DNA of 64,000 nt from a virus (Duplodnaviria; Heunggongvirae; Uroviricota; Caudoviricetes): positions 31,480-95,479 of the IMG/VR virus record IMGVR_UViG_3300029516_000004; one strand, 5' to 3'. Under the pieces are notes generated by a model. It was not told the origin of the DNA. It was given only the letters and a program-made list of their open reading frames with translations, and did no database searches. The position numbers and the translations under genes were made by a program. Positions 910-52,779 of this stretch are shown piece after piece (within the stretch, counting starts at the first letter, position 1; every line of letters starts with the position of its first letter).

Positions 910-943
910 ATAACTTCGTATAATGTATGCTATACGAAGTTAT
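910..943. other. loxP: loxP recombination site (34 bp)
   Basis: Exact ATAACTTCGTATAATGTATGCTATACGAAGTTAT: 13-bp inverted repeats flanking 8-bp spacer. Confidence 0.98.
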
Positions 944-986
944 TAGGTCTGAAGAGGGGTTTACTTCCAGCTGCGCATAAAAATCA

Positions 987-1003
987 AGAATTATTAGAGC
1001 AAT
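987..1003. promoter_or_regulatory. C1 operator-like 17-mer (reverse orientation)
   Basis: agAATTATTAGAGCAAT, 15/17 match to reverse complement of ATTGCTCTAATAAATTT. Confidence 0.6.
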
Positions 1004-1069
1004 AAATTTTGAGAGAAAAATCCCACTCCACCAGCCAAAAACTGGATTGCTTTTCATAGTTGTTTGACA

Positions 1070-1086
1070 ATTGCTCTAATAAATTA
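1070..1086. promoter_or_regulatory. C1 operator 17-mer upstream of coi-c1
   Basis: ATTGCTCTAATAAATTA (16/17), immediately preceded by TTGACA. Confidence 0.7.
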
Positions 1087-1324
1087 TAGTTTTGCCGCCG
1101 TTTCGTAATACGACTTTGGATTCACTATTTAATGTGTCTTCAGCGTTGTAGAGCGGCTCAGAAGGAAATGAGCAAACAGGGAAACCTTATACAACGGCAT
1201 TACAGCTATGCATTGCTCATCTTACACACAGCGCAATGTTGTTAGATTACCCCAGCATGGATCATGGGTGAAACAGTAGGTCAGAGCTTCAGGCTCTGTG
1301 TTGTCAATACAGTGAGGCATAATT

Positions 1325-1534
1325 ATGGCTTTCATTCCACCAACCATCGACGACGTTAGACATTGCTCTAACGCTTTATCTGTAGACCCTGCCGAAACCG
1401 ACGCTGCCCGCGCCATTGCTGAACACTACTCAAAGATATCCAATCAGGAGTACCGCATCACCCAAGACGACCTGGATGATCTCACTGACACAATCGAATA
1501 TCTCATGGCCACTAACCAGCCAGACTCACAATAA
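1325..1534 (+). CDS. coi: Coi, C1 inactivator (69 aa)
   Basis: 69-aa ORF directly upstream of c1 in same orientation; size and position match P1 coi. Confidence 0.75.
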   Translation: MAFIPPTIDDVRHCSNALSVDPAETDAARAIAEHYSKISNQEYRITQDDLDDLTDTIEYLMATNQPDSQ

Positions 1535-1644
1535 ATGCACTAATAAATCTATTATTTTCGTTGGATCCTTCTATAATGGTGGCCAACAACTCCCAGTGTA
1601 ATCCGCTGTGAGTTGTTGGCCATGTCAATTCTGGAGGAGGATCA

Positions 1645-2496
1645 ATGATAAATTATGTCTACGGCGAACAACTGTACCAGGAGTTCGTCAGCTTCAGGGA
1701 TCTCTTTCTAAAAAAAGCTGTTGCACGCGCCCAACACGTTGATGCCGCCAGCGACGGTCGTCCTGTACGCCCGGTTGTCGTTCTGCCGTTCAAAGAAACG
1801 GACAGCATTCAGGCTGAAATTGATAAATGGACTTTAATGGCGCGGGAACTGGAACAGTACCCAGATCTCAATATCCCAAAGACTATTTTATATCCTGTGC
1901 CTAACATCCTTCGCGGTGTGCGTAAGGTTACGACTTATCAGACAGAAGCTGTGAACAGCGTCAATATGACCGCTGGCCGCATTATTCATCTGATTGATAA
2001 GGACATTCGCATCCAAAAAAGCGCGGGGGTCAATGAGCACAGTGCGAAATACATAGAGAACCTGGAAGCAACAAAAGAGCTAATGAAGCAGTACCCGGAG
2101 GATGAAAAATTCCGTATGCGCGTACACGGCTTTAGCGAAACAATGCTGCGCGTCCATTACATTTCCAGTAGCCCTAACTACAATGATGGTAAATCAGTTA
2201 GTTACCATGTGCCGCTATGTGGCGTGTTTATCTGCGATGAAACTCTCCGAGATGGAATCATCATCAACGGTGAATTTGAGAAAGCAAAATTTAGCCTTTA
2301 TGACTCTATAGAACCGATCATCTGCGACCGCTGGCCGCAGGCAAAAATATATCGCCTGGCAGATATTGAAAATGTAAAAAAACAAATTGCCATCACTCGC
2401 GAAGAGAAAAAGGTCAAATCAGCCGCATCAGTTACGCGCAGCCGTAAAACTAAGAAGGGGCAGCCAGTAAACAGCAACCCCGAAAGCGCGCAATAG
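1645..2496 (+). CDS. c1: C1 repressor of lytic functions (283 aa)
   Basis: 283-aa ORF with strong GGAGGAGG RBS, between coi and pacB as in P1; its predicted 17-bp operator recurs at about 12 sites in the window. Confidence 0.85.
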   Translation: MINYVYGEQLYQEFVSFRDLFLKKAVARAQHVDAASDGRPVRPVVVLPFKETDSIQAEIDKWTLMARELEQYPDLNIPKTILYPVPNILRGVRKVTTYQTEAVNSVNMTAGRIIHLIDKDIRIQKSAGVNEHSAKYIENLEATKELMKQYPEDEKFRMRVHGFSETMLRVHYISSSPNYNDGKSVSYHVPLCGVFICDETLRDGIIINGEFEKAKFSLYDSIEPIICDRWPQAKIYRLADIENVKKQIAITREEKKVKSAASVTRSRKTKKGQPVNSNPESAQ

Positions 2497-2521
2497 TTTT
2501 CCATCCGGCATGGTCAAATTG

Positions 2522-4006
2522 TTATTCATTAAGCCATGCCAGAGCTTCATCAACCTGCGCTTCGTCTTCGACGCTAAGCACTTCATCTTGGGGAACATAG
2601 TTCGCCAACATAGCGAAACAATATGTATCCCAATGGTCCGGTGAGTGCAGGTTGAGTTTTTTCTTCATATCTTCCTTTGACATCACCTTCCATTGACCTG
2701 CGGAATTTATCCCTACCGGTATCTTTGATGCTTCCTCTATAGTCGCAGCCCCCTTATCAAGCCGCATACGCCCTGATTTTACAGCTTCTGCCGCCTGAAT
2801 ATTCGCGAAAGCGCGCATATCGAAATAAAGGCTTTTATCTTCACGGCTGTGCATCTTTTTACCCCAGCGGATACGCTGGACGGTAATACCATAGCGTTCG
2901 TACATCAGATCAGCCGTCGATTTCCCCAAGCCATCGCCATCAATAGCTATGGTTATGTTCGGGAACCGTTCTGGGTTACATTCTGCGAAAATCTTGGCGG
3001 CTAACTGCGTTTCTGTAACGTCTGTGTATTCCAGCATACGATAGTTGATTACACGGCGTTTATTTCGCTGGCCGGACACCATCATGATATTAATAACGGA
3101 CTTATCTCGTCCTGCGCCACCAGCAACGTCAACACATGCAACCCAGCCCCATCCTTTGGCAATCTTGACCTTTCGCCGCGTCGCCCGCTCAACCTCATCA
3201 CGACCAAGAAGAAAGCCATCTTGAGATTTGGGAAATTCACCACGTACTTTAATCATATACATGGGGTTATCACGACCGCCATACTCCGCAAGTTTTGCTC
3301 GTATAAATTTTGCATCTACAAGCGGAGATTCTTCACTATTCAGTATTATCGCAGTAAACAATCCATCAGGATTTCCCGGGCGAATAGCTAGTCTGTGGTG
3401 TGAATCGTAGAAATAGCCTGAAGGTCGCGTAGGCTGGGAAAGAAGCAGAATACGGTTATCCTTACCGGTCAGCGCACCTGTTATCACACTGAATGCTTTA
3501 TCACTCACACCCGACGCTTCGTCGATGATATACAAGAGATGATCGGCGTGTTCACCAGCCAACGCCTCCTCATTTCCGGGGCGACAGGACTTTATCAATA
3601 TTGTCCAAACACCCTTGCCAGTCACCTCAAAAAAAGACGTTTCTGTAAGAATGAAATACTTCGACAACCACGGGAATCTGCTAACAGCAGTAGCCCAATT
3701 GCTCTTTATGTATTTGAAAATACCATCAAGGACTTGCTGTCTTTTGTTAGCGACCAGAATAACGCGAGCGCCGGGGAAAAACATGATGAAGAGTATTGCA
3801 ATGATACTCGTCATATCCGACTTACCAGTACCATGGCCGGAGGTCACACTTGTCCAACTGCCGTCCTGCTGCGTGGACTCAATGATCTCATCCTGCTGCC
3901 AGGTTGGTGTCTTCCCAAACAACACATCAGCGGCCGCAATCCAGTCATAACGATATAGCGCCACCAGCTCGCGCCAACGTGGGTCCGTTACGCAACTTCT
4001 GGCCAT
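2522..4006 (-). CDS. pacB: PacB terminase large subunit (494 aa)
   Basis: 494 aa, start overlaps pacA stop; synteny pacA-pacB-c1. Confidence 0.85.
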
Positions 4007-5199
4007 TAATCATCATCCCCGTACAGTTTGCGGGTAACTTCTTCGTCTTCCTCCTCGTCTTCGTCCAGATCCTGTTCAAGCCATGCTTCGTTTGATATGC
4101 CTTCCGCATCGACATCACCATAACCACCTGTATCGACGATATCGGCAATTTCTTCTCTACGATGCTCAATCCACAATGCGGCATCAGCGCGGCGGCTGGC
4201 GGCCCGTTCTCGCGCGATTTTATCCAGATCTTCAAGTGATGGAGCGCCAGATGCTGTTTGGTTTTCCTCGTCATCGGTATTGGTCTTAGGAGCACGCAGA
4301 TCGGCTTTGATTTGCTCCAGCATCAGGGGCGGCACTTTCCCTCCATGCGCCTCGATGAATTCAGCTGCTTCCAGCACTGACCAGTTATTTTCACGCTTTC
4401 GTTCGTATGCCAGCTTAACAATGCCAGCTTGCCCCATAGATAAAGCGTGCTTTTCCGCCTCCCGGCTTTCTTTTCGATAGTTATTCCGGATGCTGTAAAT
4501 GGTGTTGATCAGGCTGCTTATCTGCGCGGAACAGCTGTTTAGCATGCTCGCGATACGGTATTCAGGCGGAGTACCTTCATCATCGTCTTTTTGCTGATCG
4601 CGCATTTCCTGCACCAGGCGAATACACGTATCCCTGGCGTTCTCCAGCATAAGGAGATGAGAAAGAGACTTTTCAAGAAGAGTGGTTTCCAGAACATCGG
4701 CCCCGGACCGACGCAACATAGCGCGCGCGGCCTTCCGTGCTTCAACGTTATCTATCAGGTAATCGCCAGCTTCGAATTCAAAGCGTTCACCATCATCATC
4801 CAGGGTGTCGCGTTCCAGGCGATCACGTAAGGTACGGTGGGCGCGAGTGATCACGTCATGATCATCAGAACGATCATTTATGCGCTTATTTTGGCGCTTA
4901 GCGTTCTCGACTGCGGCACTGACAACAGCATTAACTCTTTGTTTTTCAGCCATTTCAGCCACAATGTGATCACCTGCACGTTGATCATTAGCGTGATCAA
5001 TGATCATGCTTTTTAGTGGTTTCCTGACAGGCTTATTTGGCTTACGACTGTCCGCTGTTCCGGTGTCTTCTTTGAATGCACGGAGATAACGACGTGCGGT
5101 GTTTGGGTTGAGATTAAACTCGGCGGCATATTGTGCGATGGTGTAACCACCATCTCGCGCCAGGCGAGCAAAATTCTTCTTGTGATCGTCCCAGGTCAC
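4006..5199 (-). CDS. pacA: PacA terminase subunit (397 aa), contains pac site
   Basis: 397 aa; the GATC-hexamer pac site lies in its 5' coding region. Confidence 0.85.
4821..5008. other. pac: pac packaging site with clustered TGATCA/G hexamers
   Basis: Two clusters of four Dam-site hexamers each (around 4821-4876 and 4965-5006) flanking a central segment, inside pacA. Confidence 0.75.
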
Positions 5200-5285
5200 T
5201 TATGCTTCCTTTCGTATAAAACTCTTTTTGACGCGAGGGTAACGAAAGTCACATGTCAAAAGGCCCGGAACGGGCAAGCAATCAA

Positions 5286-5738
5286 TCAGATACGTGCGGA
5301 TGTAGCATTACCGTAATGACGGTGCTGACGGGCCACCTTATTGAAAAGTTGACGCGCCATTACCCAAGGCTGGTGCTCCCGGCGTTCCTTTTCGTCCTGC
5401 GTCATATAGAGTTCGTTCTGGAGTTTTTCATCAAACCGGCGCGGAGCGCGGCTACGGCGAAAGAATTCAGGATTCAGAGAGTGGATCTGAAATCTACGTG
5501 GGCGTGTACTGTCATCAATCAAAACAGACGAATACTTAGACACAGCGATAGCCTTTAAGCGCAGATAAACATCGCGCTTATCGACATCCAGATGCGGGTA
5601 TTCCTTTTCAAGAATTGCTGCGAGTTCTTTCGCTGATAGAAGAGATTTAGTGCGGATCATGTAATCCGCAATCTCGTACGATGTTATTCGTGAGTGATTT
5701 ATTTCCATGAAGTGGCGTCCCTGCCAGTTAAGTAACAT
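5286..5738 (-). CDS. lpa: Lpa late promoter activator (150 aa)
   Basis: 150-aa ORF immediately upstream of pacA with operator-like site upstream; matches P1 gene 10 position and size. Confidence 0.7.
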   Translation of the reverse strand: MLLNWQGRHFMEINHSRITSYEIADYMIRTKSLLSAKELAAILEKEYPHLDVDKRDVYLRLKAIAVSKYSSVLIDDSTRPRRFQIHSLNPEFFRRSRAPRRFDEKLQNELYMTQDEKERREHQPWVMARQLFNKVARQHRHYGNATSARI

Positions 5739-5808
5739 CCTGTCACCTACTGATTAGCCCATGTCAACTAATCAACGTGGAATATAATACCCTCGATTAA
5801 AGAAATAG

Positions 5809-5825
5809 CAATACATTAGAGCAAT
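5809..5825. promoter_or_regulatory. C1 operator-like site upstream of lpa
   Basis: caATACATTAGAGCAAT, 14/17 to operator reverse complement. Confidence 0.5.
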
Positions 5826-5826
5826 T

Positions 5827-6870
5827 TTATCTAACGCTCAACGAGTGACTTGTGATAGCGCCGACTCCAAGCGCGTAATCAAAGAACAATCGTTGATGCA
5901 TCGCCAGCCTACCGTGCGTCTTCTCCCAATTATCGCGGTCACGCTCAATATCACGCTGGCATGACTGGCACAGAGGAATTGCGTAAATGTCATGCGCGCA
6001 TAATCGACTATGACGAACAATATAAGGCGTAATGTGAGCGCCAGCTCCCGCCGCTCCACACCCACAGCATGGACGGGAAGCAACAAAGTCCATGTACTCA
6101 GGTAATTTTAGCGATTGCAGTTTTGGTATTTTGAAATGCGCCATGCCAGGGTCGGAGTCAACATCCACAGGGCATACTTTTGCACGCATCGGCGCGGCGC
6201 GTTCTTCCATCATCTGAACATATGCTGTAGCGCGATCGTCATACGGGCGAATATCCGCCTCTTTCAGAGGTCCGCTATCCTGCGTTGCGGCTTTCATCTT
6301 ATTTATTGATATACGGCAAACTTCTTCCGGCATCAGGTGCATCATGTTGCGCATGAAAGCCCACCAGCACAGTTCCTGAATACTTAAATCATGGCCATCT
6401 GAAAGCCCCATTTCCTGACGGGCGACATCCAGTATCCAGTTAACGCGATTATTATGCAGCGTTTCTTTCAGCTCATTAAAACCACGCATCCGGTAATGGT
6501 TATCGTGATGCCAGCACAGCAACACCGCGCTATTGTCTCGTTCAGCGTGGACAATATGGTTGTCACACCAACTATGATCTGCGGCCTGGCATCGCCCCTC
6601 TTTCCTGCGCAACCACGCCACCAGCGCGTCAATTCCACCAATACGACGAAACAGCTCATCGCTGTTAAAAAACGGCTGCAACGCCTCATTTGTTGCCATG
6701 GTTTGCTCGGAAACAACGAGGCCGTCGTCCATGTGCTCGATTAACTCACGCGGCACCGGCTCCATAATAAATTTACGGCCAGCCTCCACCAGCTTTCTGA
6801 CCTCCTGATCCACTTTGAACGTGGCGAGGCCAAGCTCTTTCTGTACAAAGGGAGTAATTACGGCTTTCAC
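5827..6870 (-). CDS. hypothetical Cys/His-rich protein (347 aa), post-doc region
   Basis: ORF-track ORF; motifs CWHHDNH and [12 protein letters not shown]...CQSCQ suggest a metal-binding, possibly HNH-like, fold. Confidence 0.6.
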
Positions 6871-6897
6871 ATCACACCTTTAATCACTGATTGGGCT

Positions 6898-7098
6898 TTA
6901 TCTGCTGCCCGGCATTCTCTGTTTAAGCACAACCATTTCCTGACGGCATAACACAGCAATAGCGGTCCTGGCACCAATTTGCTTACCAACCAGGTATTGC
7001 TTTACCTTGCGGCGACTCACGCCATCAAGAAGCATCTTTAACGCTTCACGGGACAATTTGTTGTATTTGCGTGCCATTAATCTACTCCGCAGAACCAT
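6898..7098 (-). CDS. hypothetical small basic protein (66 aa)
   Basis: ORF immediately downstream of doc, overlapping its stop. Confidence 0.45.
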
Positions 7099-7462
7099 AC
7101 AATCTACGTAACGTGTCGGCGACAGAAGATACAGATATCTCGCCAGTCGCAGCGCCTACGGTAAGGTCTGCCAGTTCAGGTGAATCAAATACCTGCACCC
7201 CGTTACGGCGTAGAAATAGCAGCGCACTGTTTAGCGCGGTACGCTTATTGGCATCATTGAATATATGCCCTCTCGCTGTAGCCACCAGGTAGGTGGCGGA
7301 GACTTCGAAAAGGTCGGTGATCTCTTCGTAGGCAACTCTGGCCTGAACTCTCCCGATAATGGCCTCTGCCCTACCCGGATCTGACATTCCCGGCAGGCCG
7401 CCGTAGCGGTTTATATTCGCATCATGAAGCGCAATAAGTTCTTCCGGTGATATATGCCTCAT
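7082..7462 (-). CDS. doc: Doc toxin (Fic-fold kinase), 126 aa
   Basis: [43 protein letters not shown]... recognised as P1 Doc; start overlaps phd stop. Confidence 0.95.
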
Positions 7463-7683
7463 TATCGGTTAACCAGTTCCTTGTTGGTGGAGTCCAGGGT
7501 GTCAAACAGGGATGCAAATTCAGCATCCAGCGCCGCTTTTTTGTAGGCTTCGAAAGTAGCCTTGCTGACAATTACTGCTGGCTCACGGCCTCTGCGGGTG
7601 ATTTCAACCTCTTCCCCGGCCTCAACATTGTTGAGCACTTCAGAAAGGTTGCCGCGCGCGGTACGGAAGTTAATGGATTGCAT
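7462..7683 (-). CDS. phd: Phd antitoxin, 73 aa
   Basis: [73 protein letters not shown] recognised as P1 Phd. Confidence 0.95.
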
Positions 7684-7692
7684 AAATACCTC

Positions 7693-7720
7693 GTGTACTC
7701 GTTATGTGTACACAATTATA
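7693..7720 (-). promoter_or_regulatory. phd-doc promoter/operator with GTGTAC palindromes
   Basis: TATAAT (minus strand, 7715-7720) followed by TGTGTACACA and GTGTAC half-sites just upstream of phd RBS. Confidence 0.5.
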
Positions 7721-7859
7721 AACTTCACAGGCATAAAGCACCAGCACTTTGCGGCTTAACAAACCTCTAGGCAGGTCATTCGTAGCCTAATGTCCGAACT
7801 GCTAAAGCATCCAAGTTGCTGTAGAATCACCGCCAATTACATAAGCCTGAAATAAGTGG

Positions 7860-9422
7860 ATGAAAATGACAAGTATTCAACAACGTGCAGAGCTTCATCG
7901 TCAAATCTGGCAAATTGCTAACGATGTCAGGGGTTCGGTCGATGGATGGGATTTTAAGCAATACGTTCTGGGCGCACTTTTCTACCGTTTTATCAGCGAA
8001 AATTTTTCCAGCTATATTGAAGCCGGGGATGACAGTATCTGTTATGCGAAACTGGATGACAGCGTAATTACTGATGACATTAAAGACGATGCTATCAAAA
8101 CTAAAGGCTACTTCATCTACCCCAGTCAGCTTTTCTGCAACGTAGCGGCGAAAGCAAATACCAATGACAGACTGAATGCAGATTTAAACAGCATCTTCGT
8201 TGCTATCGAAAGTTCTGCTTACGGTTATCCTTCAGAAGCTGACATCAAAGGTTTGTTTGCTGATTTCGATACCACCAGTAACCGCCTGGGTAACACCGTT
8301 AAAGATAAAAATGCCCGCCTGGCTGCGGTTCTGAAAGGGGTTGAAGGGTTAAAACTTGGTGACTTCAACGAACATCAGATTGACCTGTTCGGTGATGCCT
8401 ATGAGTTCCTGATCTCTAACTATGCGGCAAATGCCGGTAAGTCAGGCGGCGAGTTCTTTACACCGCAGCACGTCTCTAAGCTGATTGCACAACTGGCTAT
8501 GCACGGGCAGACCCACGTTAACAAAATCTACGACCCGGCAGCAGGCTCCGGTTCGCTGTTGTTGCAGGCTAAAAAACAGTTTGATGACCATATCATCGAA
8601 GAAGGTTTTTTTGGTCAGGAAATCAACCATACGACCTATAACCTGGCGCGTATGAACATGTTTTTGCACAACATCAACTACGACAAGTTTGATATCAAGC
8701 TGGGCAATACGCTGACTGAACCGCACTTCAGAGATGAAAAACCGTTTGATGCCATCGTTTCTAACCCGCCGTATTCGGTGAAATGGATTGGCAGCGATGA
8801 CCCGACGCTGATTAACGATGAACGTTTTGCCCCGGCTGGCGTTCTGGCCCCCAAATCCAAAGCTGACTTTGCGTTTGTATTACATGCGCTGAACTATCTT
8901 TCTGCCAAAGGTCGTGCTGCGATTGTTTGCTTCCCGGGTATTTTTTACCGTGGCGGTGCGGAGCAGAAAATCCGTCAGTATCTGGTCGACAATAACTATG
9001 TCGAAACCGTGATTTCACTGGCACCGAATCTGTTCTTTGGCACCACCATTGCCGTCAATATTCTGGTGCTGTCTAAACATAAAACCGATACCAAAGTTCA
9101 GTTTATTGACGCCAGCGAACTATTCAAAAAAGAGACCAACAACAATATCCTGACCGATGCCCATATCGAACAGATTATGCAGGTATTTGCCAGCAAGGAA
9201 GATGTTGCTCATCTGGCGAAATCAGTCGCGTTTGAGACCGTTGTTGCTAATGACTATAACCTGTCGGTGAGCAGCTATGTTGAAGCGAAAGATACTCGCG
9301 AAATTATCGATATCGCTGAGTTGAATGCAGAGCTGAAAACCACGGTCAGCAAAATCGACCAGTTGCGTAAAGATATTGATGCAATTGTGGCTGAAATTGA
9401 AGGCTGCGAGGTGCAGAAATGA
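7860..9422 (+). CDS. hsdM: Type I R-M N6-adenine DNA methyltransferase HsdM (520 aa)
   Basis: Motif [12 protein letters not shown] and motif IV SNPPY; translationally coupled to hsdS (ATGA overlap). Confidence 0.95.
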
Positions 9423-10636
9423 GCGAGTTGAGTTATCTGGAAAAATTGATGGATGGGGTTGAAGTTGAGTGGTTGCCACTCTCAAAAGTATTCAACTTAA
9501 GGAATGGTTATACACCGTCTAAAACTAAAAAAGAATTTTGGGCGAATGGTGATATACCTTGGTTCAGAATGGATGACATACGTGAAAATGGTAGAATTCT
9601 AGGGAGTTCACTTCAAAAAATTTCATCCTGCGCCGTAAAAGGGGGGAAACTATTTCCTGAAAATTCAATATTAATATCAACGTCGGCAACAATTGGTGAG
9701 CATGCTTTAATCACTGTACCTCATCTAGCCAATCAAAGGTTTACATGTTTGGCTTTAAAAGAGTCTTATGCTGATTGCTTTGATATTAAATTTTTATTTT
9801 ACTACTGTTTTTCTTTAGCTGAGTGGTGCCGAAAAAACACAACGATGTCCAGTTTTGCGTCTGTTGATATGGATGGATTCAAAAAATTTTTAATCCCTCG
9901 CCCCTGCCCGGATAATCCGGAAAAATCCCTTGCCATCCAGTCTGAAATCGTGCGAATTCTGGACAAATTCAGCGCCCTTACTGCAGAGCTTACTGCAGAG
10001 CTTACTGCAGAGCTTAGCATGCGTAAAAAACAATACAACTACTATCGCGACCAGTTGTTGAGTTTTAAAGAGGATGAGGTTGAGGGTAAGAGGAAAACCT
10101 TAGGGGAAATTATGAAGATGCGTGCCGGACAACATATTTCGGCTCATAATATAATTGAAAGAAAAGAAGAGAGTTATATATATCCTTGTTTTGGAGGAAA
10201 TGGCATACGGGGTTACGTCAAAGAAAAAAGTCATGATGGAGAACATCTATTAATAGGGCGACAAGGAGCATTGTGTGGTAATGTTCAAAGAATGAAAGGC
10301 CAGTTCTATGCTACAGAACATGCTGTTGTAGTTTCAGTCATGCCCGGGATTAACATTGACTGGGCATTTCATATGTTAACGGCAATGAATCTAAACCAAT
10401 ATGCTTCAAAATCGGCACAACCGGGACTTGCTGTAGGGAAATTACAGGAATTGAAATTATTTGTCCCTTCAATAGAGAGACAAATATATATTGCCGCAAT
10501 ACTCGATAAATTCGACACTCTGACCAACTCCATCACCGAAGGTCTCCCGCGTGAAATCGAGTTACGCCAGAAACAGTACGAATATTATCGAGATATGCTA
10601 TTTAGTTTCCTGAAGCCGGAAGTAGCAGAGGCATGA
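9419..10636 (+). CDS. hsdS: Type I R-M specificity subunit HsdS, type IC-like (405 aa)
   Basis: Two AT-rich variable TRD-like halves separated by a conserved central region carrying [13 protein letters not shown]; conserved C-terminal repeat region. Confidence 0.92.
9977..10012 (+). repeat. 3 x 12-bp in-frame tandem repeat CTTACTGCAGAG encoding (LTAE)x3 in hsdS central spacer
   Basis: Perfect triplicate at 9977-9988, 9989-10000, 10001-10012, plus partial fourth unit. Confidence 0.95.
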
Positions 10637-10637
10637 C

Positions 10638-11828
10638 ATGGGCAAGACACTCTCGGAAATAGCTCAACAGCTTAGTACGCCTCAGAAAGTCAAGAAGACT
10701 GTCCATAAAGAAGTTGAAGCGACCAGGGCCGTGCCAAAGGTGCAGTTAATCTACGCTTTCAATGGCACGGGGAAAACGCGTCTTTCCCGGGATTTCAAGC
10801 AACTGCTTGAGTCCAAAGTTCATGACGGAGAAGGTGAAGACGAAGCTGAACAGTCCGCGTTGTCGCGCAAAAAAATCCTCTATTATAATGCCTTCACCGA
10901 GGACTTGTTCTATTGGGATAACGATCTGCAAGAAGACGCAGAACCGAAGCTGAAGGTGCAGCCTAACTCCTATACAAACTGGTTGCTGACCTTGCTAAAA
11001 GATTTGGGACAGGATAGCAATATCGTCCGTTATTTCCAGCGCTATGCGAACGACAAGCTAACGCCACACTTCAATCCAGATTTTACCGAAATCACTTTTT
11101 CCATGGAGCGCGGTAACGATGAGCGTTCCGCCCACATCAAGTTATCCAAAGGTGAAGAGAGCAACTTCATCTGGAGTGTGTTTTACACCCTACTGGATCA
11201 AGTGGTAACAATTCTCAATGTCGCTGACCCGGATGCGCGCGAGACCCACGCATTTGATCAACTGAAATATGTATTCATTGATGATCCCGTTAGCTCCCTT
11301 GATGATAACCACTTGATTGAACTGGCGGTTGATCTTGCAGGGCTGATCAAATCCAGCGAATCCGATTTGAAGTTCATTATCACGACACATAGTCCAATAT
11401 TTTATAATGTACTTTTCAATGAGTTGAACGGTAAAGTTTGCTACATGTTGGAAAGTTTTGAGGATGGTACATTTGCCCTCACAGAAAAATATGGCGACTC
11501 TAACAAGAGTTTTTCCTACCATCTCCACCTAAAGCAAACAATCGAACAGGCAATTGCTGACAACAACGTTGAAAGATATCATTTCACGTTACTGCGCAAT
11601 CTTTATGAGAAAACGGCCAGCTTTCTGGGCTACCCTAAATGGTCTGAACTCTTGCCTGACGACAAGCAGCTTTATCTGAGCAGAATCATCAATTTCACAA
11701 GCCACAGCACGCTATCGAATGAGGCCGTTGCAGAGCCAACGCCAGCGGAGAAAGCGACTGTCAAACTGTTGCTCGATCACTTGAAGAACAACTGTGGCTT
11801 CTGGCAGCAGGAACAAAAAAATGGTTGA
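10638..11828 (+). CDS. prrC: PrrC-type anticodon nuclease (396 aa) embedded in hsd locus
   Basis: N-terminal Walker A FNGTGKTR; C-terminal R-x3-E (LRNLYEKT) with His 36 residues later, falling at positions 320/324/356; gene order hsdM-hsdS-prrC-hsdR. Confidence 0.85.
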
Positions 11829-14800
11829 TTGCACCAAACCAATTGCTGAGTCCAATAATTTTATCATTTTGGACAAATACAACCCGGACTGGAAGATTAC
11901 CGAGAGCTACCAGAGCGAAGGTGATCTGGAGCGTGAGCTGATTCAGGATTTGGTTAACCAGGGCTATGAATACCTGCCAACCCTGAACAACACCAAGGCT
12001 ATGCTCGCTAATGTCAGGGAACAGTTGCAAAACCTTAACAATGTAGAGTTCCTGGAGGCTGAATGGCGTCGCTTTGTGGAAACCTGGATGGACAAGCCCA
12101 GCGATGGCGTTGTTGAAAAGGCCCGCAAGATTCATGATGATTATGTTCATGATTTCGTCTTCGACGATGGCCGTATTCAGAATATCTATCTGCTGGATAG
12201 AAAAAACATCCTTCGCAATAAAGTGCAGGTCATCAAGCAGTTTGAACAAGCAGGCACGCACGCCAATCGCTACGATGTCACCATTCTGGTCAATGGCCTG
12301 CCGCTGGTACAAATTGAATTGAAAAAACGTGGTGTAGCGATTCGTGAGGCTTTCAACCAGATACATCGTTACAGTAAAGAGAGTTTTAACAGCGAAAATT
12401 CCCTGTTTAAGTATCTGCAGCTGTTCGTCATTTCCAACGGCACTGATACCCGTTATTTTGCCAACACCACAAAGCGCGATAAAAACAGTTTTGACTTCAC
12501 CATGAACTGGGCTAAATCAGACAATACACTGATTAAAGACCTCAAAGACTTTACCGCTACCTTTTTCCAGAAACATACTCTGCTTAATGTTCTGGTGAAC
12601 TACAGCGTTTTTGACAGCAGTCAGACGCTACTGGTAATGCGACCGTACCAGATTGCCGCCACCGAGCGCATTCTGTGGAAAATTAAGAGTTCCTTTACAG
12701 CGAAGAACTGGTCAAAACCGGAAAGCGGTGGGTATATCTGGCACACTACCGGTTCTGGTAAAACCCTCACCAGCTTTAAAGCCGCGCGTCTGGCAACAGA
12801 ACTGGACTTTATTGATAAAGTTTTCTTTGTGGTCGACAGGAAAGACCTCGATTACCAGACCATGAAGGAATATCAGCGTTTTTCGCCAGACAGCGTCAAC
12901 GGCTCGGAAAATACCGCAGGCCTTAAACGAAATCTGGATAAGGACGATAACAAAATTATCGTCACTACTATTCAGAAACTCAATAACCTGATGAAAGCAG
13001 AAAGCGACCTGCCTGTATATAATCAGCAAGTGGTGTTTATATTTGATGAATGCCACCGCAGCCAGTTTGGAGAAGCGCAGAAAAACCTGAAGAAGAAATT
13101 CAAACGCTATTATCAGTTTGGTTTTACCGGCACCCCTATTTTCCCGGAAAACGCCTTAGGCTCAGAAACAACCGCCAGCGTATTTGGTCGTGAATTGCAT
13201 TCGTATGTAATTACCGATGCGATTCGTGACGAAAAAGTGCTCAAATTCAAGGTGGACTACAACGATGTGCGGCCACAGTTTAAGTCTTTAGAGACAGAAA
13301 CTGACGAGAAAAAACTGAGTGCGGCTGAAAATCAGCAGGCGTTTCTTCATCCCATGCGTATTCAGGAAATCACGCAATATATTCTGAATAATTTCCGCCA
13401 GAAAACCCACCGTACCTTCCCTGGCTCAAAAGGTTTTAATGCTATGTTGGCAGTGAGCAGCGTGGATGCCGCGAAAGCCTATTATGCGACGTTTAAACGG
13501 TTACAAGAAGAAGCCGCTAATAAATCGGCTACCTATAAACCGCTGCGTATTGCGACAATCTTCTCCTTTGCCGCCAATGAAGAACAAAATGCCATTGGTG
13601 AAATTTCCGATGAAACTTTTGATACCAGCGCAATGGACAGCAGTGCTAAAGAGTTTCTGGACGCTGCAATTCGTGAATATAACAGCCATTTTAAAACTAA
13701 CTTTAGCACCGACAGTAACGGTTTTCAGAACTACTATCGTGATTTAGCCCAGCGGGTTAAAAATCAGGATATCGATCTGCTAATTGTCGTGGGGATGTTT
13801 TTAACCGGTTTCGATGCTCCAACATTAAACACGCTATTCGTCGATAAAAACTTGCGTTTTCACGGCCTGATGCAGGCATTCTCCCGCACCAACCGCATTT
13901 ATGACGCGACTAAAACCTTCGGTAATATTGTCACGTTCCGAGATCTGGAACGCTCAACCATTGATGCCATAACGCTGTTTGGTGACAAAAATACCAAAAA
14001 TGTGGTTTTAGAAAAGAGTTATGCAGAGTATATGGAAGGCTTTACTGATGCTGCCACTGGTGAAGCTAAGCGCGGCTTTATGGCAGTAGTTTCAGAACTG
14101 GAACAACGGTTCCCTGACCCTACCAGTATTGAAAGTGAAAAAGAGAAGAAAGACTTCGTTAAACTGTTTGGTGAATACCTGCGTGCCGAGAACATCCTGC
14201 AAAACTATGATGAATTTGCCACGCTGAAAGCCCTGCAACAAATCGATCTTAGCGATCCTGTTGCGGTAGAAAAATTCAAAGAAGAACATTATGTGGATGA
14301 TGAAAAGTTCGCTGAATTGCAAACGATTCGTCTCCCTGCTGAACGCAAGATTCAGGATTATCGTTCTGCCTATAACGATATTCGTGACTGGCAGCGCCGC
14401 GAGAAAGAAGCTGATAAAAAAGAAAAATCAACCACTGACTGGGATGACGTGGTTTTTGAGGTCGATTTGCTGAAGTCTCAGGAAATAAACCTGGATTATA
14501 TCCTTGGACTGATTTTCGAACACAACAGACAAAATAAAGGCAAGGGCGAAATGATCGAAGAGGTCAAACGCTTAATTCGTTCAAGCCTGGGGAACCGGGC
14601 GAAAGAGGGCCTGGTGGTCGATTTTATTCAGCAAACGAACCTGGATGATTTACCAGACAAAGCCAGTATCATTGAGGCATTCTTTACGTTTGCTCAACGC
14701 GAACAGCAACGTGAAGCAGAAGCATTGATAAAAGAAGAAAATCTCAATGAAGATGCAGCAAAACGCTATATTCGCACGTCTTTAAAACGCGAATACGCCA

Positions 14801-14940
14801 CCGAAAATGGCACAGAATTAAACGAAACATTACCAAAACTTAGTCCGTTGAATCCGCAATATAAAACGAAAAAACAGGCAGTTTTCCAGAAAATCGTCTC
14901 GTTTATTGAGAAGTTTAAAGGCGTAGGCGGAAAAATATAG
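11821..14940 (+). CDS. hsdR: Type I R-M restriction endonuclease/translocase HsdR
   Basis: PD-(D/E)xK-like D..ELK ([18 protein letters not shown]), helicase motif I HTTGSGKT, motif II DECH; ORF-track start 11794 lacks RBS, ATG at 11821 has AGGAAC RBS. Confidence 0.93.
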
Positions 14941-14956
14941 CCCAATTCGTGTTTTT

Positions 14957-14984
14957 CTTGCGGGTTCTTAATTAAACCCGCAAG
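14957..14984. other. 10-bp-stem hairpin downstream of hsdR
   Basis: CTTGCGGGTT-cttaatta-AACCCGCAAG perfect inverted repeat; no U-tract on either strand. Confidence 0.4.
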
Positions 14985-15019
14985 AGCTCGTGGGGTTCCA
15001 AATGGCTAATATACTCCCC

Positions 15020-15106
15020 TTACCCATGCGCGACGATGCCGCCAAAAGTGATAGAGAACAGCCAGAAATAGATCGCGGCCATAATGATTTTGAATGCCGT
15101 GTTCAT
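15020..15106 (-). CDS. candidate small hydrophobic peptide (28 aa)
   Basis: Manual translation MNTAFKIIMAAIYFWLFSITFGGIVAHG; AGGAG RBS 7 nt upstream; below ORF-track size cut-off; downstream of a C1 operator. Confidence 0.3.
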   Translation of the reverse strand: MNTAFKIIMAAIYFWLFSITFGGIVAHG

Positions 15107-15134
15107 ATTTTCAGCTCCTGTGATTGATTGGATA

Positions 15135-15165
15135 CATGCCGCGCCTTGCGGCATGTTTTTATTTT
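15135..15165 (+). terminator. rho-independent terminator ending the hsd operon
   Basis: CATGCCGC-gcctt-GCGGCATG 8-bp stem followed by TTTTTATTTT. Confidence 0.65.
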
Positions 15166-15188
15166 CACTTCCCCTGCCTTAAAAATCT

Positions 15189-15205
15189 ATATTTATTAGA
15201 GCAAT
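15189..15205. promoter_or_regulatory. C1 operator 17-mer at the distal edge of the hsd island
   Basis: ATATTTATTAGAGCAAT (16/17, reverse orientation); candidate -35 TTCATC and -10 TAAATA overlap on minus strand. Confidence 0.65.
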
Positions 15206-15711
15206 TATTGTTGATGAAGAAGCGCATTTTCATACTCCCTGACCATTAATGTAAGTACGCCGTGACTCCTGAAAACACGCGCCACTTCAATCTTATCTTC
15301 CAGCGCGAACGCAATTTTACTTAGACCAATTTTCTTCAGGAGATCAATCTTTGCTGGACCGTCATTTCTGTCATCGGTGGCAGGACGCATAGATAGCAAA
15401 GGCTCCGCCCCATTTGTTACGTGCTTACGCAACCAGGCTCGTGTTTTATCCCTGGCTATCTCACAGCGCCCGGTTACAAACCAGAGGGTGTAAATGCCGG
15501 ACAACTGGCGCACCATATCAATAACTGGAGTGATGGGAGCATCAGTGTCACAGGCAAGGTTAAACTCGTTCCAGTGCTCTGTTAATGCACCTTTGCCAGG
15601 TGGTGGAAGTAAATGCAGCCTGTCTTCCGTTGCCTCTGATATCGTCCCATCAATATCTACTATGACGATGTACGGACGTTCCTGGTGTGCGTGTTTATTG
15701 AAAATACTCAA
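15205..15711 (-). CDS. HAD-superfamily phosphatase-like protein (168 aa)
   Basis: N-terminal VIVDIDGTIS (DxDGT catalytic motif of HAD phosphatases, as in polynucleotide 3'-phosphatases). Confidence 0.7.
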   Translation of the reverse strand: MSIFNKHAHQERPYIVIVDIDGTISEATEDRLHLLPPPGKGALTEHWNEFNLACDTDAPITPVIDMVRQLSGIYTLWFVTGRCEIARDKTRAWLRKHVTNGAEPLLSMRPATDDRNDGPAKIDLLKKIGLSKIAFALEDKIEVARVFRSHGVLTLMVREYENALLHQQ

Positions 15712-15783
15712 ATGCCCTCCTCATTGGACGAAAAAAATGCTGGTGGGAGCACTCCACCAGCATTAAAAGTGACACTGTAACTA

Positions 15784-17046
15784 TCAGCGAACGTAAATAG
15801 TGCCGCCGTTCTCTTTTTCCCATGCATCGCTACGTGCATAGCAAACATCGAGAAGTCTTCTTGCCGCAGTTTCCTCTAAACCCAATTCGACAACCAACTG
15901 CTCATGACGGCGGGTAACCACATCAAACAGGGTATGCAGCCCTTTAGTTGCCAGATCATCAATGAATTCCGGTTCGAACGGCAGCTCTGCATCTGCCAAC
16001 ATAACCTCTTGCGCCCACTCAACTCGACGGACCAATTCCGGGCGACGGCTTTCCATCTCTTTACAGATCAATTCATGGAAGAACTCTACCCAACCTTCCG
16101 GCTGGAACTCGCGGAAAATTGCCAACGGCTGGAAGTTTGGCATCAACCATTCGTTGATTCGGATATCAATGGCATAGCCCATGTCGCAGCAGAACTGATA
16201 AGCAAAGTCCAGCTTAGAAACGATATAAGGACGCTCGTTATTGAACTCTTTAGGCGATGAGATCCCATAAGCCAGGAGGCGCGGGAAGAAGGAGATTTGC
16301 CCTAACGTCGGATGAAGTTTGCTTGCAGGGAAACGGCGCTCAGTAATGCCATACATTTCCTTCTTGAGCGTCGCAAATTTGGCATTCTCATTAACCAGCG
16401 CGGTAACCTCTGCTTTTTTATTAGCAAATGCCACGCGCGCCTCGCTTGCATCTTTAATAGTTTTTTTGAGCTGTTGGTTAAGGTCGGCGACCTGCTTACG
16501 CAGTTCCTGTCGCTCGCTTTTAGCTTTGTTATAGCGTTTCTCAAGGTTAAAAGGATCAAGTTTCATGATCTCTTTATATTGAGATTTTAGCGTTGAAATC
16601 TGTGAGTTCCGCAGTTCAACCATCGCAGTCATTTCATTGAGTTTTGTTTCCAGCTCAATGCTTATACGTTCGGCATTATCAGCACGCTGGTTGGCGTCAT
16701 GCGTCGCATCGTCGATCGCGTCCTGTTGCTGGCGTTTCAAATGTTCAATTTCCAGCTGAAGCTCTTCAATTTCTTTACCCTTCAGACCGAGATCCAACTG
16801 CATATTTTCAGCTGCATCTACCAGGGAGTTATGGCTATCAGCTTCTGCGTTATAAACATCAATAAGCTGTGCGTGAAGCATCTCCGCTGACTGAACCGCA
16901 TTATCAAAAAAACGTGCTGTGAGGTCATCACAACTAACGCGGCGTTGCGCGGCCCGGATGTTCTGGATAATGGCCGGGATACCGGCATTCAGGACATCAG
17001 GGATACATACATTTTCGATTGATTGGTTTTGTGCTGAAGTGCTCAT
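15784..17046 (-). CDS. hypothetical protein with long coiled-coil segment (420 aa)
   Basis: ORF-track ORF; heptad-rich central region (ELQLEIEHLKRQQQ...). Confidence 0.6.
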   Translation of the reverse strand: MSTSAQNQSIENVCIPDVLNAGIPAIIQNIRAAQRRVSCDDLTARFFDNAVQSAEMLHAQLIDVYNAEADSHNSLVDAAENMQLDLGLKGKEIEELQLEIEHLKRQQQDAIDDATHDANQRADNAERISIELETKLNEMTAMVELRNSQISTLKSQYKEIMKLDPFNLEKRYNKAKSERQELRKQVADLNQQLKKTIKDASEARVAFANKKAEVTALVNENAKFATLKKEMYGITERRFPASKLHPTLGQISFFPRLLAYGISSPKEFNNERPYIVSKLDFAYQFCCDMGYAIDIRINEWLMPNFQPLAIFREFQPEGWVEFFHELICKEMESRRPELVRRVEWAQEVMLADAELPFEPEFIDDLATKGLHTLFDVVTRRHEQLVVELGLEETAARRLLDVCYARSDAWEKENGGTIYVR

Positions 17047-17047
17047 T

Positions 17048-17266
17048 TCAAAGTTCCGTATTAGCTTGTGCTTCGGTCATTTTTCCTAAGTATGAAGGAG
17101 GAAGGACTACGCAATTTGTATCCAGTCCCTCACCTATGGCAGCCTGTAAAATTCTGGCTAAGGTGAGTCTCTTGTTGCGATACCTGGTGATGACATGCCT
17201 GATACCGCCGGTCGGCGTAACAAAGGCGATCAGCCAGTAGTGATATTTCCGTCGGAATGGCCACAT
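17048..17266 (-). CDS. hypothetical protein (72 aa)
   Basis: ORF abutting the downstream gene; preceded by operator/terminator module. Confidence 0.45.
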   Translation of the reverse strand: MWPFRRKYHYWLIAFVTPTGGIRHVITRYRNKRLTLARILQAAIGEGLDTNCVVLPPSYLGKMTEAQANTEL

Positions 17267-17280
17267 AGTGCACCTTGTAG

Positions 17281-17346
17281 ATTGCTCTAATAAAAAACGT
17301 GATGAGTGTACATCACGTTTTAAAAATATGGAATTATTAGAGCAAT
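17281..17346. promoter_or_regulatory. two inverted C1 operator-like 17-mers flanking a bidirectional terminator hairpin
   Basis: ATTGCTCTAATAAAAAA (17281-17297), hairpin ACGTGATG-agtgta-CATCACGT with flanking A/T runs, then GGAATTATTAGAGCAAT (17330-17346). Confidence 0.6.
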
Positions 17347-17347
17347 A

Positions 17348-18049
17348 TTATTCTGATTCTCGCTCAAAAAATGAGCTGATAAGGGGAAGCCAATCCTCTG
17401 ACACTTCGCGAGGTCGCGGTTTGCCGTGGAAAAAGATTATTCGGCAGTCTTTTGGTAATGCCCCATTCCCCCTGGAGTAACGCGCGCTCGCATATTTTGA
17501 ACCAGGTTCCACAACATCGGCCTTGTAACTTACAAACCATCCTGGATACAGATCCTGAAATGCTGGTGTATCATCGCCCATAACCTTTCGTAAGAACCCC
17601 TGGTCCCCCCAGCACTCAGTAGTGACACAACGAGAAATCCAACCTTCCGGATCTTGCCAGAATGAACTCCAGATATGCGCTTTAACACTATTTGGTATCC
17701 ACAGGGCACCGCTGCCACGATATTGTGGATGGTAAAAATCCCTAAGCATGGTGAAGCTGGTTGGTGGATGCTCTAGGATTGGGCGTATATCACCGGCAAT
17801 AACCGTGTCCAAATCCAGATAGAACAGATCATCGGTTATATCCGGTCGGAACAACTCGATTTTCGCCCACCAGCCACGGCACTTTTGCCACTGGTTGATC
17901 AATGGGACAACTTTGACGCCAGGTACATGTAAACGCTTCAGGTCTGTCAGGCAAATAATTTCATAGCCTTTTGGCAGTTGATTAACCAGCCACTGCACAT
18001 CGGAAGCGTTATAGTCACCACCAGAGCGAAAAACTAAAGCAATCTTCAT
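17348..18049 (-). CDS. hypothetical protein (233 aa)
   Basis: ORF-track ORF, stop overlaps downstream start of the phosphatase operon. Confidence 0.6.
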
Positions 18050-18738
18050 GCTGCACCATCACCTTTCACTTTCATCAATGTCAGGTTTCCGCAAAATACG
18101 GCACCAGTGTCGATATACTGCTGATTCCAGAATGTCTTCGGGCTTTTCACCGGAGTGTGACCAAAGATAAAACGATCTGCGCCCGAAATTTCGCCACCAA
18201 TATCATCCATCGAATCACTGATACGCTCGCGCGCCCAGACAACGTTGAAAAGCGGCACCTCCTTACCGAATTGGTATTCATTATCCGGATAGTCGGCATG
18301 GGCTATAACGATAGTTTCTTGCCCGGTGTTCAACTCAATGATATAGGGCAGACGCTTTACCAGCTCCACCAGCGCCCAGGCTAATATTTCCTGATCAGTG
18401 TCCAGCATGAAGAACCATTGTCCGCCATTCATTAGCCAGTTATTCACGTTGCCATCTGGACTTAACGCATCAATCATCAGCCGCTCATGGTTCCCCATCA
18501 CTGCCCTGAACCAGGGCATCTGCAATAGTTCCAGACATTCGACATTTTCAGTACCGCGATCGATAAGGTCGCCGACCGATATCAGTAAATCCTGCGCCGG
18601 GTCAAAATCCACACGATGGAGTTCGGACATCAGTCTGGTGTAACAACCATGCAGATCACCAACAACCCAGATATTCCTGTATTTGGTACCGTCGATACGG
18701 TGATAAATTGTTGGTGCCATCATGTATTCTTCAGCCAT
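18046..18738 (-). CDS. ppp: Ser/Thr protein phosphatase, lambda-PPase-like metallophosphatase (230 aa)
   Basis: GDLHG, GDLIDRG and GNHE metallophosphatase motifs. Confidence 0.85.
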
Positions 18739-19346
18739 TCTTTAAGAGTCATCTGCGGAATACCTCCCATTTTCCCGCATGAAACAACGTCAATCTGTTC
18801 ACGCGCAGACTGGAATAACAAAGGCAGGTGACTTAGATTTTTTGGCGTGCCGCCGGAGTGAACGCGTGGTTCTTGCGTAGCGTCAACGCCCACCAGGGCG
18901 ACATGTTTGAATCCGATATGGAAAGCCAGGTTCAGAGCACCATATGCACTATTGCCGCTGGCAATTTCATTCTCATCTTCGCAAAGTCCGAAATGTGCGG
19001 ACCAGCGCCACGCCCACCACTCGGGAGAATTCGTATTTTTTGGCTCCATGCCACGTTCAGCCACACGACGGAAGCACAGAACGCCGTCTCTGACTTCACG
19101 TTCTTTAACATCGGGTAGTGCCATGCAATAACAAACACCACGGCGACGGCGGCCACGACCAACGCGCCGCATATTGTCTGGCGATGGATCAAGTGTGAAA
19201 AAATAAGAAGCGCGGTTCAGCCAGTCGATGGCCCCATTGACCGCTATAATCGGCACTCCGCGCGGCGCAACAAAGTTTGCGGCGCTTGGGCCACTGCCGA
19301 CGATAATAACGCGATCACTGCCTCTAAATTTATTCTTGGGAAACAT
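18720..19346 (-). CDS. hypothetical protein, paralog A with GSGPS motif (208 aa)
   Basis: VIIVGSGPS...IIAVNGAID...VALVGVD; paralogous to the upstream ORF. Confidence 0.6.
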
Positions 19347-19906
19347 TGAATTGCACTGCTCCTACTTGCATTCAAAATATGTAAATCTGCGTGTTTTTTG
19401 CGGGTATCCAAGAACTGCTGTTGCCATTTTGAAATAGACACCTGCGTTGGATTCCGTAGGGCTTGAGGGTGCGCACCATGCCAATGAAGGCCGTTTTGCA
19501 GAGAACAGTCATAGCCGACTAATACCACTACTTCAGCCCCTGATTCAGCAGCCAGACTGATAGCCTGCGCGCCGCTATTTACCCCTTCCGCCGGTCCACA
19601 ATATCGCCTGTACTCCAACGAAAATGATTTCGCCGCCGCTAGGTTGGCTGTCACTTTGCGGAATCTCCCTCCCGGTATGGTGGAGCCGTATTGCTTCCAC
19701 CATGACAAATCACCGGCGTATAAGGCATAAATGTCATCGAACATCTGCCAGGAATTGTTAACCGCGATGATTGAACAGCCAGTTTTTTCTATAGCAGCAC
19801 AGTCCTCACGAGTGAGTGACGGACCGCTACCGACACAAAAAACAGTCCTAGTCGCCCTGGGTGGTATGTTCATTCTCAGCTGCAAATTCAGCCTCCAGGC
19901 GAGCAT
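19244..19906 (-). CDS. hypothetical protein, paralog B with GSGPS motif (220 aa)
   Basis: VFCVGSGPS...IIAVNNSWQ...VVLVGYD; overlaps the downstream paralog by 103 nt. Confidence 0.6.
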   Translation of the reverse strand: MLAWRLNLQLRMNIPPRATRTVFCVGSGPSLTREDCAAIEKTGCSIIAVNNSWQMFDDIYALYAGDLSWWKQYGSTIPGGRFRKVTANLAAAKSFSLEYRRYCGPAEGVNSGAQAISLAAESGAEVVVLVGYDCSLQNGLHWHGAHPQALRNPTQVSISKWQQQFLDTRKKHADLHILNASRSSAIQCFPRINLEAVIALLSSAVAQAPQTLLRRAECRL

Positions 19907-20069
19907 TCATTTCAGCGATTACAGGGTCCACTACAGCATCTGTTTCCTGTTCATTACGCGGCATGATCGATGCCAGCGATTCATAATTAGCCTTGGATGA
20001 CACGATTATTCTCCCGATGTTAATGTGCGCTATATCAAATGGCGCATATGTACTAATTAATTTATTATT

Positions 20070-20648
20070 TTAAGCAGCATACAACCACTTGTCGCCGTTC
20101 AATACATGCTCAATAGCCTCACCCTTTTTAAGGCTCATGTATTCCAGGATGGCGGTTATCGCTTGTTCTGCACCATACGCAAGAACGACGTAGTAACCTT
20201 CCTCTCTAAGCCTGCGCATCCAGGCGATCTGCTCTTGCGTCGGGGCTTTACCATTTGGTTCTTTAAGCTCAATTCGCATGCCGTGATAAATACCGCATGC
20301 TTTATCGAGACTCATGTCCGGATAACCTTTTTTCTGCCCTTCAGCCTTCATTTTCCCGGCGGTTGCTTTTGAACGTTTCCCTCCGTTAGGCGTTGCATGC
20401 AACAGCTCATAGATGTCAGGGTGCTTGCGTTCGAAGTAATCAAAAATGAAAACCTGCTCGAAGTGCTCGCAATTTCCGTCGCGCAGGTCTGGGTTCTTTG
20501 CCAGTGCTGCAAGTGCCTTCGCATGTGGAGAAACTTCTTTTACCGGCGCAAGCGATAAGAATGGATCCTTTTTGGTTTTTGGCCTGGACCGCCCCTTATT
20601 TCGACGCTCACTAAAAGCCTGAAACTCTTCCTCAGTAAAGCGCAACAT
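20070..20648 (-). CDS. VRR-NUC / PD-(D/E)xK-like nuclease domain protein (192 aa)
   Basis: GYPDMSL...GMRIELK pattern typical of VRR-NUC domains. Confidence 0.6.
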   Translation of the reverse strand: MLRFTEEEFQAFSERRNKGRSRPKTKKDPFLSLAPVKEVSPHAKALAALAKNPDLRDGNCEHFEQVFIFDYFERKHPDIYELLHATPNGGKRSKATAGKMKAEGQKKGYPDMSLDKACGIYHGMRIELKEPNGKAPTQEQIAWMRRLREEGYYVVLAYGAEQAITAILEYMSLKKGEAIEHVLNGDKWLYAA

Positions 20649-20650
20649 AA

Positions 20651-51585: not shown

Positions 51586-52233
51586 ATGAGAAAACTATTA
51601 CTACCGTTATTATTTATGGCTGGGACTGTTAATGCAGCATCAAGCGTAAAGGAGATTTGTACCGATTATACGAAATACCTTGGGCACGTTTACGGCTTTG
51701 CTGTCAGTCAAGACGAATCCATGCGCAAGAAGTTACTGTCAGATATGAAACGCCTTAAACTTTCTGAAGCGATGGTGCAGCAAGAACTGTATAAAGTCGC
51801 AACCAACGAAAATGCTAAATATCAATATTCTCGCCTGTTAAATCCCGACGCAAACGAGATCAATCGAAGCTCTTTCGATTATATGGTAAAGGCATGCGAA
51901 ACCGCTCCTGATTTTGCTATTCCTAGCTGGGGTGTGCTGGTGGCGAGCAATGCCGTTAATAAAGAAGACGTTGGAAGAAATGGCATTGACTCAATCAGAA
52001 ATGCCCCAGGAATGCGCCATCAAAACGTGCAGGGTACGCTTGAAGAGCGGGCCAGGGGGCCGGGTACAAACTCCCCAATGGGAAACCTCTCACCAGAGGA
52101 ATTGCAAGAGTATAACCAACGGATGGAGCAGTATGAGAAAGCGGCACGCGAACAAATGGAACAACAAAAGAACGGCTCACTTAATACCTTTCAGCAAGGT
52201 TTAAAAGCGCTTAATTTACCCTATGAATGGTAA
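51586..52233 (+). CDS. secreted protein with cleavable signal peptide
   Basis: From Met at 51586: MRKLLLPLLFMAGTVNAASS signal peptide with GGTGAGG RBS; C-terminal PGMR...VQGTLEERARG motif also present in Sit. Confidence 0.55.
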   Translation: MRKLLLPLLFMAGTVNAASSVKEICTDYTKYLGHVYGFAVSQDESMRKKLLSDMKRLKLSEAMVQQELYKVATNENAKYQYSRLLNPDANEINRSSFDYMVKACETAPDFAIPSWGVLVASNAVNKEDVGRNGIDSIRNAPGMRHQNVQGTLEERARGPGTNSPMGNLSPEELQEYNQRMEQYEKAAREQMEQQKNGSLNTFQQGLKALNLPYEW

Positions 52234-52294
52234 ATATATTATGGATAACCAATTAAAATATTGATAATCGTTAATATCCAAAGGAGATAAATTA

Positions 52295-52771: not shown

Positions 52772-52779
52772 CCTGTCAC

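Follow-up and report, generated by a model that had tools for sequence, protein, structure and literature searches.

An intact prrC anticodon nuclease gene within the type IC hsd operon of a P1-like phage-plasmid

[quoted passage not shown] Published biochemistry, reviewed in PMC3014915, has established the physical association of PrrC with the restriction enzyme EcoprrI. The prototype has also been followed through its successive states, from latency with EcoprrI and unmasking by Stp to GTP hydrolysis, cleavage of tRNA-Lys and repair of the cut by Pnk and Rnl1, and its active form is stabilised by dTTP (PMC3014915, PMC1484252, PMC12707154). Production of PrrC alone is toxic to E. coli or limits itself there, and it is lethal to yeast (PMC1484252, PMC3025547), which fits the toxicity anticipated in an earlier note on the present DNA. 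Alanine scanning of EcoPrrC covered 53 residues, of which 33 proved essential to its toxicity (Meineke et al. 2010, PMC3025547 Table 1), and a catalytic triad of R320, E324 and H356 has been proposed from null, leaky and chemically rescued mutants, with the authors' own caution that the general-acid role of H356 is unconfirmed by chemical rescue, H356A not being rescuable (PMC1484252). The HEPN classification stresses an R-x4-6-H motif (PMC3710099).

Two further groups of known systems bear on the locus. RloC shares with PrrC an ABC-type NTPase N-domain and a HEPN-type C-domain with conserved Arg-Glu-His (PMC2610378, PMC3710099), but is described in the literature as much longer, with a Rad50-like coiled-coil/zinc-hook insert, as rarely linked to restriction-modification genes and as excising the wobble base. 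The type IC systems EcoR124I/II and EcoDXXI of P1-related plasmids combine an EcoR124-type HsdR with an HsdS carrying tandem TAEL repeats, as does the operon described below, but they lack prrC and have a short intergenic gap between hsdS and hsdR.

The window, that is, the whole 64,000-nucleotide stretch analysed (positions 31,480 to 95,479 of IMG/VR record IMGVR_UViG_3300029516_000004), carries prrC on the plus strand at 10638..11828, running from an ATG to a TGA stop at 11826-11828. Direct counting bears out the 396-residue product that the earlier note, written from the sequence alone, had given for this frame. The pairwise comparison with CT196 PrrC that the note had called for shows the protein to be identical to Swiss-Prot PRRC_ECOLX (P17223) at 395 of 396 residues, with the single substitution N232D, so the "PrrC-like" of that note was right as to family and too modest as to degree: the protein is EcoPrrC itself with one change. 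The reference was fixed by exact-sequence look-ups: that of the chromosomal-island allele of E. coli strain B1 identified it as PRRC_ECOLX, the UniRef100 representative, and neither the window allele nor a third E. coli allele, H166Y, led to the Swiss-Prot name. The PADLOC PrrC profile (PDLC02360) matches residues 3-395 at E = 6.1e-148, Pfam returns only the generic AAA_13 (2.9e-13), and no NCBIfam model matches. Along with its length, the window protein shares with EcoPrrC the NTPase motifs, the lysine-anticodon recognising peptide (LARP), R320/E324/H356 and R349-x6-H356, and the two loci have the same gene order. They differ in that the window locus lies on a P1-like phage-plasmid and the EcoPrrC-type locus in a chromosomal island, and the window HsdS does not share its target-recognition domains with the other prr loci in complete genomes.

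The functional residues established for the prototype are retained throughout. All 53 scanned residue/position pairs match the window protein, including 33/33 of those essential for toxicity, as do Y294, D341 and E371 of Blanga-Kanfi et al. 2006 (PMC1484252). The Walker A motif or P-loop FNGTGKTR, reported as intact in the earlier note, is indeed so: it occupies codons 41-48 (10758..10781, plus strand) and includes K46 and T47 which, together with R48, are essential in EcoPrrC (PMC3025547 Table 1). The remaining NTPase motifs accompany it, so that the set comprises Walker A GxGKT47, LSKGE173, Walker B D215-D216, the D-loop SSLD222 and the H-loop H251 (KFIITTH251). The determinant of tRNA-Lys specificity is likewise identical, with the LARP at codons 284-294 (11487..11519, plus strand) reading as the motif quoted in PMC3025547 and containing D287 and Y294.

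As for the proposed triad, LRNLYEKT begins at residue 319 and NFTSHST at residue 352, placing the Arg, Glu and His at 320, 324 and 356 as the earlier note had them; these are ordinary N-terminal numbers, and its phrase "from the C-terminus" is no more than a quirk of expression. Codons 320-324 (R-N-L-Y-E; 11595..11609, plus strand) supply R320 (cgc, 11595-11597), the essential N321 and E324 (gag, 11607-11609), and codons 349-356 (RIINFTSH; 11682..11705, plus strand) supply the HEPN-type R-x6-H, R349-IINFTS-H356, with R349, N352 and H356 (cac, 11703-11705) all essential in EcoPrrC. The triad is as complete as had been claimed. No substitution of R320, E324 or H356 occurs (49/49) in an alignment of 49 full-length representatives with 31-63% identity to the query, and T47, W93, D215, D216, S220 and H251 are equally invariant. 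R349 is semi-conserved in the same 49 homologs (32 R, 14 K, 3 Q), although essential in EcoPrrC. The window protein thus carries both residue sets, R320/E324/H356 and R349/H356.

The alternative that survives best is that this prrC is a decaying or inactive relic in which the motifs are kept and the nuclease has been lost, for example through N232D or a changed genomic context, and we consider it highly improbable. The one non-synonymous difference from the prototype, at codon 232 (GAT, Asp; 11331..11333, plus strand), does fall at a residue that is Asn in 29/30 close homologs and that is absent from the positions tested by mutagenesis of EcoPrrC. It lies in an ABC-domain helix (223-239) just past the D-loop. 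Asp is nevertheless the commonest residue at this position among diverse homologs (28/49), and N232D is therefore within the tolerance of the family; on its sequence it is a conservative-looking substitution. The identical protein is called a "hypothetical protein" by RefSeq in strain NCCP 15734, which might be taken to favour a relic, but this label probably reflects the want of a PrrC model in NCBIfam rather than divergence. Furthermore, the frame is full length, every experimentally essential residue is kept, the partner genes are intact and a protein identical to the window PrrC is found on 88 public contigs. The conclusion of the earlier note that the nuclease looks functional rather than a relic is accordingly supported, by the 33 essential residues, the triad, the LARP and the intact hsdS and hsdR, with activity of this particular allele being what its sequence leads one to expect.

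The RefSeq treatment of these alleles is itself inconsistent: the identical protein (WP_062857936.1; positions 14827-16017 of the locus NZ_CP097001.1 427746-458934; strain NCCP 15734) bears the hypothetical label, and PrrC alleles only one residue away from it go under "anticodon nuclease". The H166/Y166 polymorphism (codon 166, window 11133-11135) falls just ahead of the ABC signature LSKGE, two residues short of the essential K168; the residue is His in both the window protein and the Swiss-Prot prototype, and homologs vary at this position (N, S, H or Y).

The partner genes of prrC form a compact operon on the plus strand. The type IC methyltransferase subunit gene hsdM (prrA) lies at 7860..9422 and encodes 520 residues from its first ATG (Pfam N6_Mtase 2.5e-121 and HsdM_N; NCBIfam TIGR00497 1.8e-195), the start in RefSeq relatives being at 7866, two codons downstream. 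The specificity subunit gene hsdS (prrB) follows at 9419..10636 and encodes 405 residues (Pfam Methylase_S 1.8e-43 in two stretches; PADLOC Specificity_I 6.3e-159). The restriction subunit gene hsdR (prrD), of EcoR124 type, occupies 11821..14940 and encodes 1039 residues (Pfam HSDR_N, SWI2_SNF2/ResIII, T1R_D3-like and EcoR124_C (PF12008) 1.1e-71; TIGR00348 5.4e-223). The system is assigned to type IC by the EcoR124-type C-terminal domain of its HsdR, by its HsdM and by an HsdS in which a central TAEL repeat accompanies two target-recognition domains. Since all three Hsd subunits have their full length and every expected domain, the complex that masks PrrC can be made.

The junctions hsdM/hsdS, hsdS/prrC and prrC/hsdR measure -4, +1 and -8 nt, the first being an ATGA overlap and the second a single nucleotide between the hsdS stop and the prrC ATG. 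The 8-nt overlap of prrC with hsdR, correctly seen in the earlier note, consists of ATGGTTGA at 11821-11828. The hsdR ATG at 11821 aligns with Met-1 of HsdR from a P1-borne type IC cassette without prrC, which confirms the start, and an identical overlap is present in the RefSeq annotation of three related records. Co-assembly with the restriction complex had been read from this overlap; tight operon or translational coupling does follow from it, whereas the physical association with EcoprrI does not and comes from the biochemistry of the prototype.

Downstream of hsdR a terminator-like GC-rich hairpin of 10 pairs followed by a T run (15134..15156, plus strand) likely marks the end of the operon, as judged by a consensus scan whose overall count is not above that of shuffled sequence. 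A promoter scan gave 11 promoter-like sites against 12.6 expected from shuffles, and no promoter is claimed.

Two features of the Hsd subunits are of separate interest. HsdS contains three tandem 12-bp TAEL repeats (codons 188-199, window 9980-10015), and that of E. coli NCCP 15734 contains two and is otherwise identical (401 vs 405 residues). This is the classic type IC spacer-length switch, of the EcoR124I/II kind, and predicts N7 versus N6 sites with unchanged half-sites. The first ~160 residues of HsdR (window 11821-12300) are 66% identical to those of the HsdR of a P1-borne cassette without prrC, and the remainder of hsdR is about 95-97% identical in nucleotides to such cassettes. On these sequences, another type IC lineage appears to have been the joint source of prrC and the 5' end of hsdR.

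The whole hsd-prr cassette (7760..15015) replaces humD-lxr-hot-upfMNO-pmgVUT of P1. By blastn, window 927-7759 corresponds to P1 94800..87970 and window 15016-25500 to P1 84482..73998, so that the junctions 7759/7760 and 15015/15016 fall at P1 87970 and 84482. The P1 GenBank record marks both junction segments as identical to the hsd flanks of EcoDXXI and R124/3, which are thus the same P1-backbone junctions, between phd and pap, as those of the window cassette, and the phd-pap interval is therefore a known and recurrent type IC cargo site. The rest of the window reads as a P1-like phage-plasmid through lox, with c1, pacAB, lpa, pdcAB and doc-phd on one side of the cassette, and pap, pmgS, ppp, tail genes, ban, three tRNAs, dmt, repA, parAB, gp23/22, repL, kilA, ant, sit and S on the other. 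Two segments, 51726-52777 and 63337-64000, find no counterpart in P1 by blastn; situated near the sim (superimmunity) region and within the variable part of the tail-fibre gene S, they are probably allelic variants of the kind typical of P1-like elements. The closest relative of the element, NZ_CP097001.1 427746-458934, has been deposited as part of a chromosome and not as a plasmid, with a GlxA-family regulator gene and a frameshifted recombinase as its flanks, and represents either a P1-like prophage that has truly integrated or an artefact of assembly.

The P1 pap gene adjoining the cassette (168 residues; window 15205-15711, minus strand) matches Pfam HAD_PNKP, a PNKP-type 3'-phosphatase domain, at 3e-11. 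A functional partnership of pap with prrC was rejected: pap belongs to P1 itself and stands at this site in all P1 relatives, with or without prrC, and its adjacency is probably coincidental for that reason. No kinase or RNA ligase partner for pap was seen. The element carries the usual three P1 tRNA genes on the minus strand at 28489-28564, 29996-30071 and 30074-30149, with anticodons CAT, TGT (Thr) and GTT (Asn). No tRNA-Lys gene is among the tRNA genes of the window, and there is thus no obvious decoy or replacement for the target of PrrC on the element. One speculative extension, to which we give little weight, is that the element may shuttle a complete EcoprrI-PrrC module between strains by way of the phd-doc/pap cargo site, with pap maybe helping the phage to heal tRNA damage of the PrrC type during lytic growth.

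This setting gives rise to a second alternative, that the nuclease is active but mainly serves the element, for example by post-segregational or addiction-type killing or by keeping out rival plasmids or phages, and is not chiefly the classic back-up against T4. The cassette directly adjoins the phd-doc addiction module on a phage-plasmid, and loss of the type I restriction-modification complex could in principle unmask PrrC; but the same cassette is found in chromosomal islands beside mcrBC, and adjacency to phd-doc is common to the far more frequent type IC cassettes without prrC, which makes this reading very unlikely. Related type IC DNA is common, a match to part of the 7.2-kb query being present in 1,688/5,426 complete E. 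coli genomes, but prrC itself is rare and was found in only six, three on P1-like elements and three in the chromosomal island beside mcrBC. [quoted passage not shown]

The window PrrC divides at about residue 264 into an N-terminal NTPase of the Rad50/SMC-type ABC class (~1-264) and a C-terminal helical ribonuclease domain of HEPN type (~265-396). Searches of the PDB with the protein and with a 30-sequence profile returned no solved PrrC relative, the sole matches being a weak one to the ApeA HEPN domain (E 0.02) and others to the Walker-B region of Rad50. An AF2 model built from a diverse alignment reached a pLDDT of 86.5 and a pTM of 0.82, and residues 294-386 are all-helical in it; a model from a shallow alignment (78-94% identity) gave a pLDDT of 56 and was discarded. 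Fold searches with the full-length model recovered the ABC head alone, leaving the HEPN fold of the C-domain without independent confirmation, and it is by its R-x6-H and its predicted all-helical structure that we place the C-domain in the HEPN superfamily after PMC3710099. The notion that the gene encodes some other ABC-ATPase/HEPN defence protein, such as RloC, a prophage ABC-HEPN protein of the APECO1_4465 type or a generic AAA_13 protein, whose trigger and target would differ, draws on the AAA_13-only Pfam result and on weak PADLOC matches to PDC-S06, AriA and ApeA (ApeA HEPN 7.8e-4), but it is barely credible for a protein with 395/396 identity to PRRC_ECOLX and an identical tRNA-Lys recognition peptide, and RloC and generic AAA_13 identities were rejected on length, context and identity, the protein having 396 residues, no coiled-coil or zinc-hook insert and a place between hsdS and hsdR within an hsd operon.

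We are therefore highly confident that this is the prrC gene known from the classical E. coli prr (EcoprrI) locus, borne as cargo by a P1-like phage-plasmid and expected to act by the established EcoPrrC mechanism, the sequence identity and the integrity of motifs and operon in this genomic context having been observed directly. For latency, activation and cleavage of tRNA-Lys we infer from the literature on the near-identical prototype the following course. PrrC would be made together with HsdM, HsdS and HsdR and held latent in the DNA-bound EcoprrI complex. An invading phage that disables the restriction enzyme, as T4 does with its 26-residue Stp peptide, would relieve the masking of PrrC. 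GTP hydrolysis by the N-domain, together with binding of dTTP, would then turn on the nuclease of the C-domain, and the active enzyme would cut tRNA-Lys 5' of the wobble base, producing 2',3'-cyclic phosphate and 5'-OH ends. Translation would halt and the infection would be aborted, unless the phage brings tRNA repair enzymes such as the Pnk and Rnl1 of T4.

The gene, its operon and its P1-like location are already known and well described, and an earlier report counts PrrC among the defence systems that P1-like and SSU5-like phage-plasmids carry (bioRxiv 10.1101/2025.09.12.675607). What the locus offers is a textbook abortive-infection nuclease, intact and nearly unchanged on a mobile P1-like phage-plasmid, and this matters mainly for correct annotation. 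For surveys of defence systems the window prrC is a clean positive control, and for the biology of P1 the cassette is a further example of the phd-pap interval as a site for type IC cargo.
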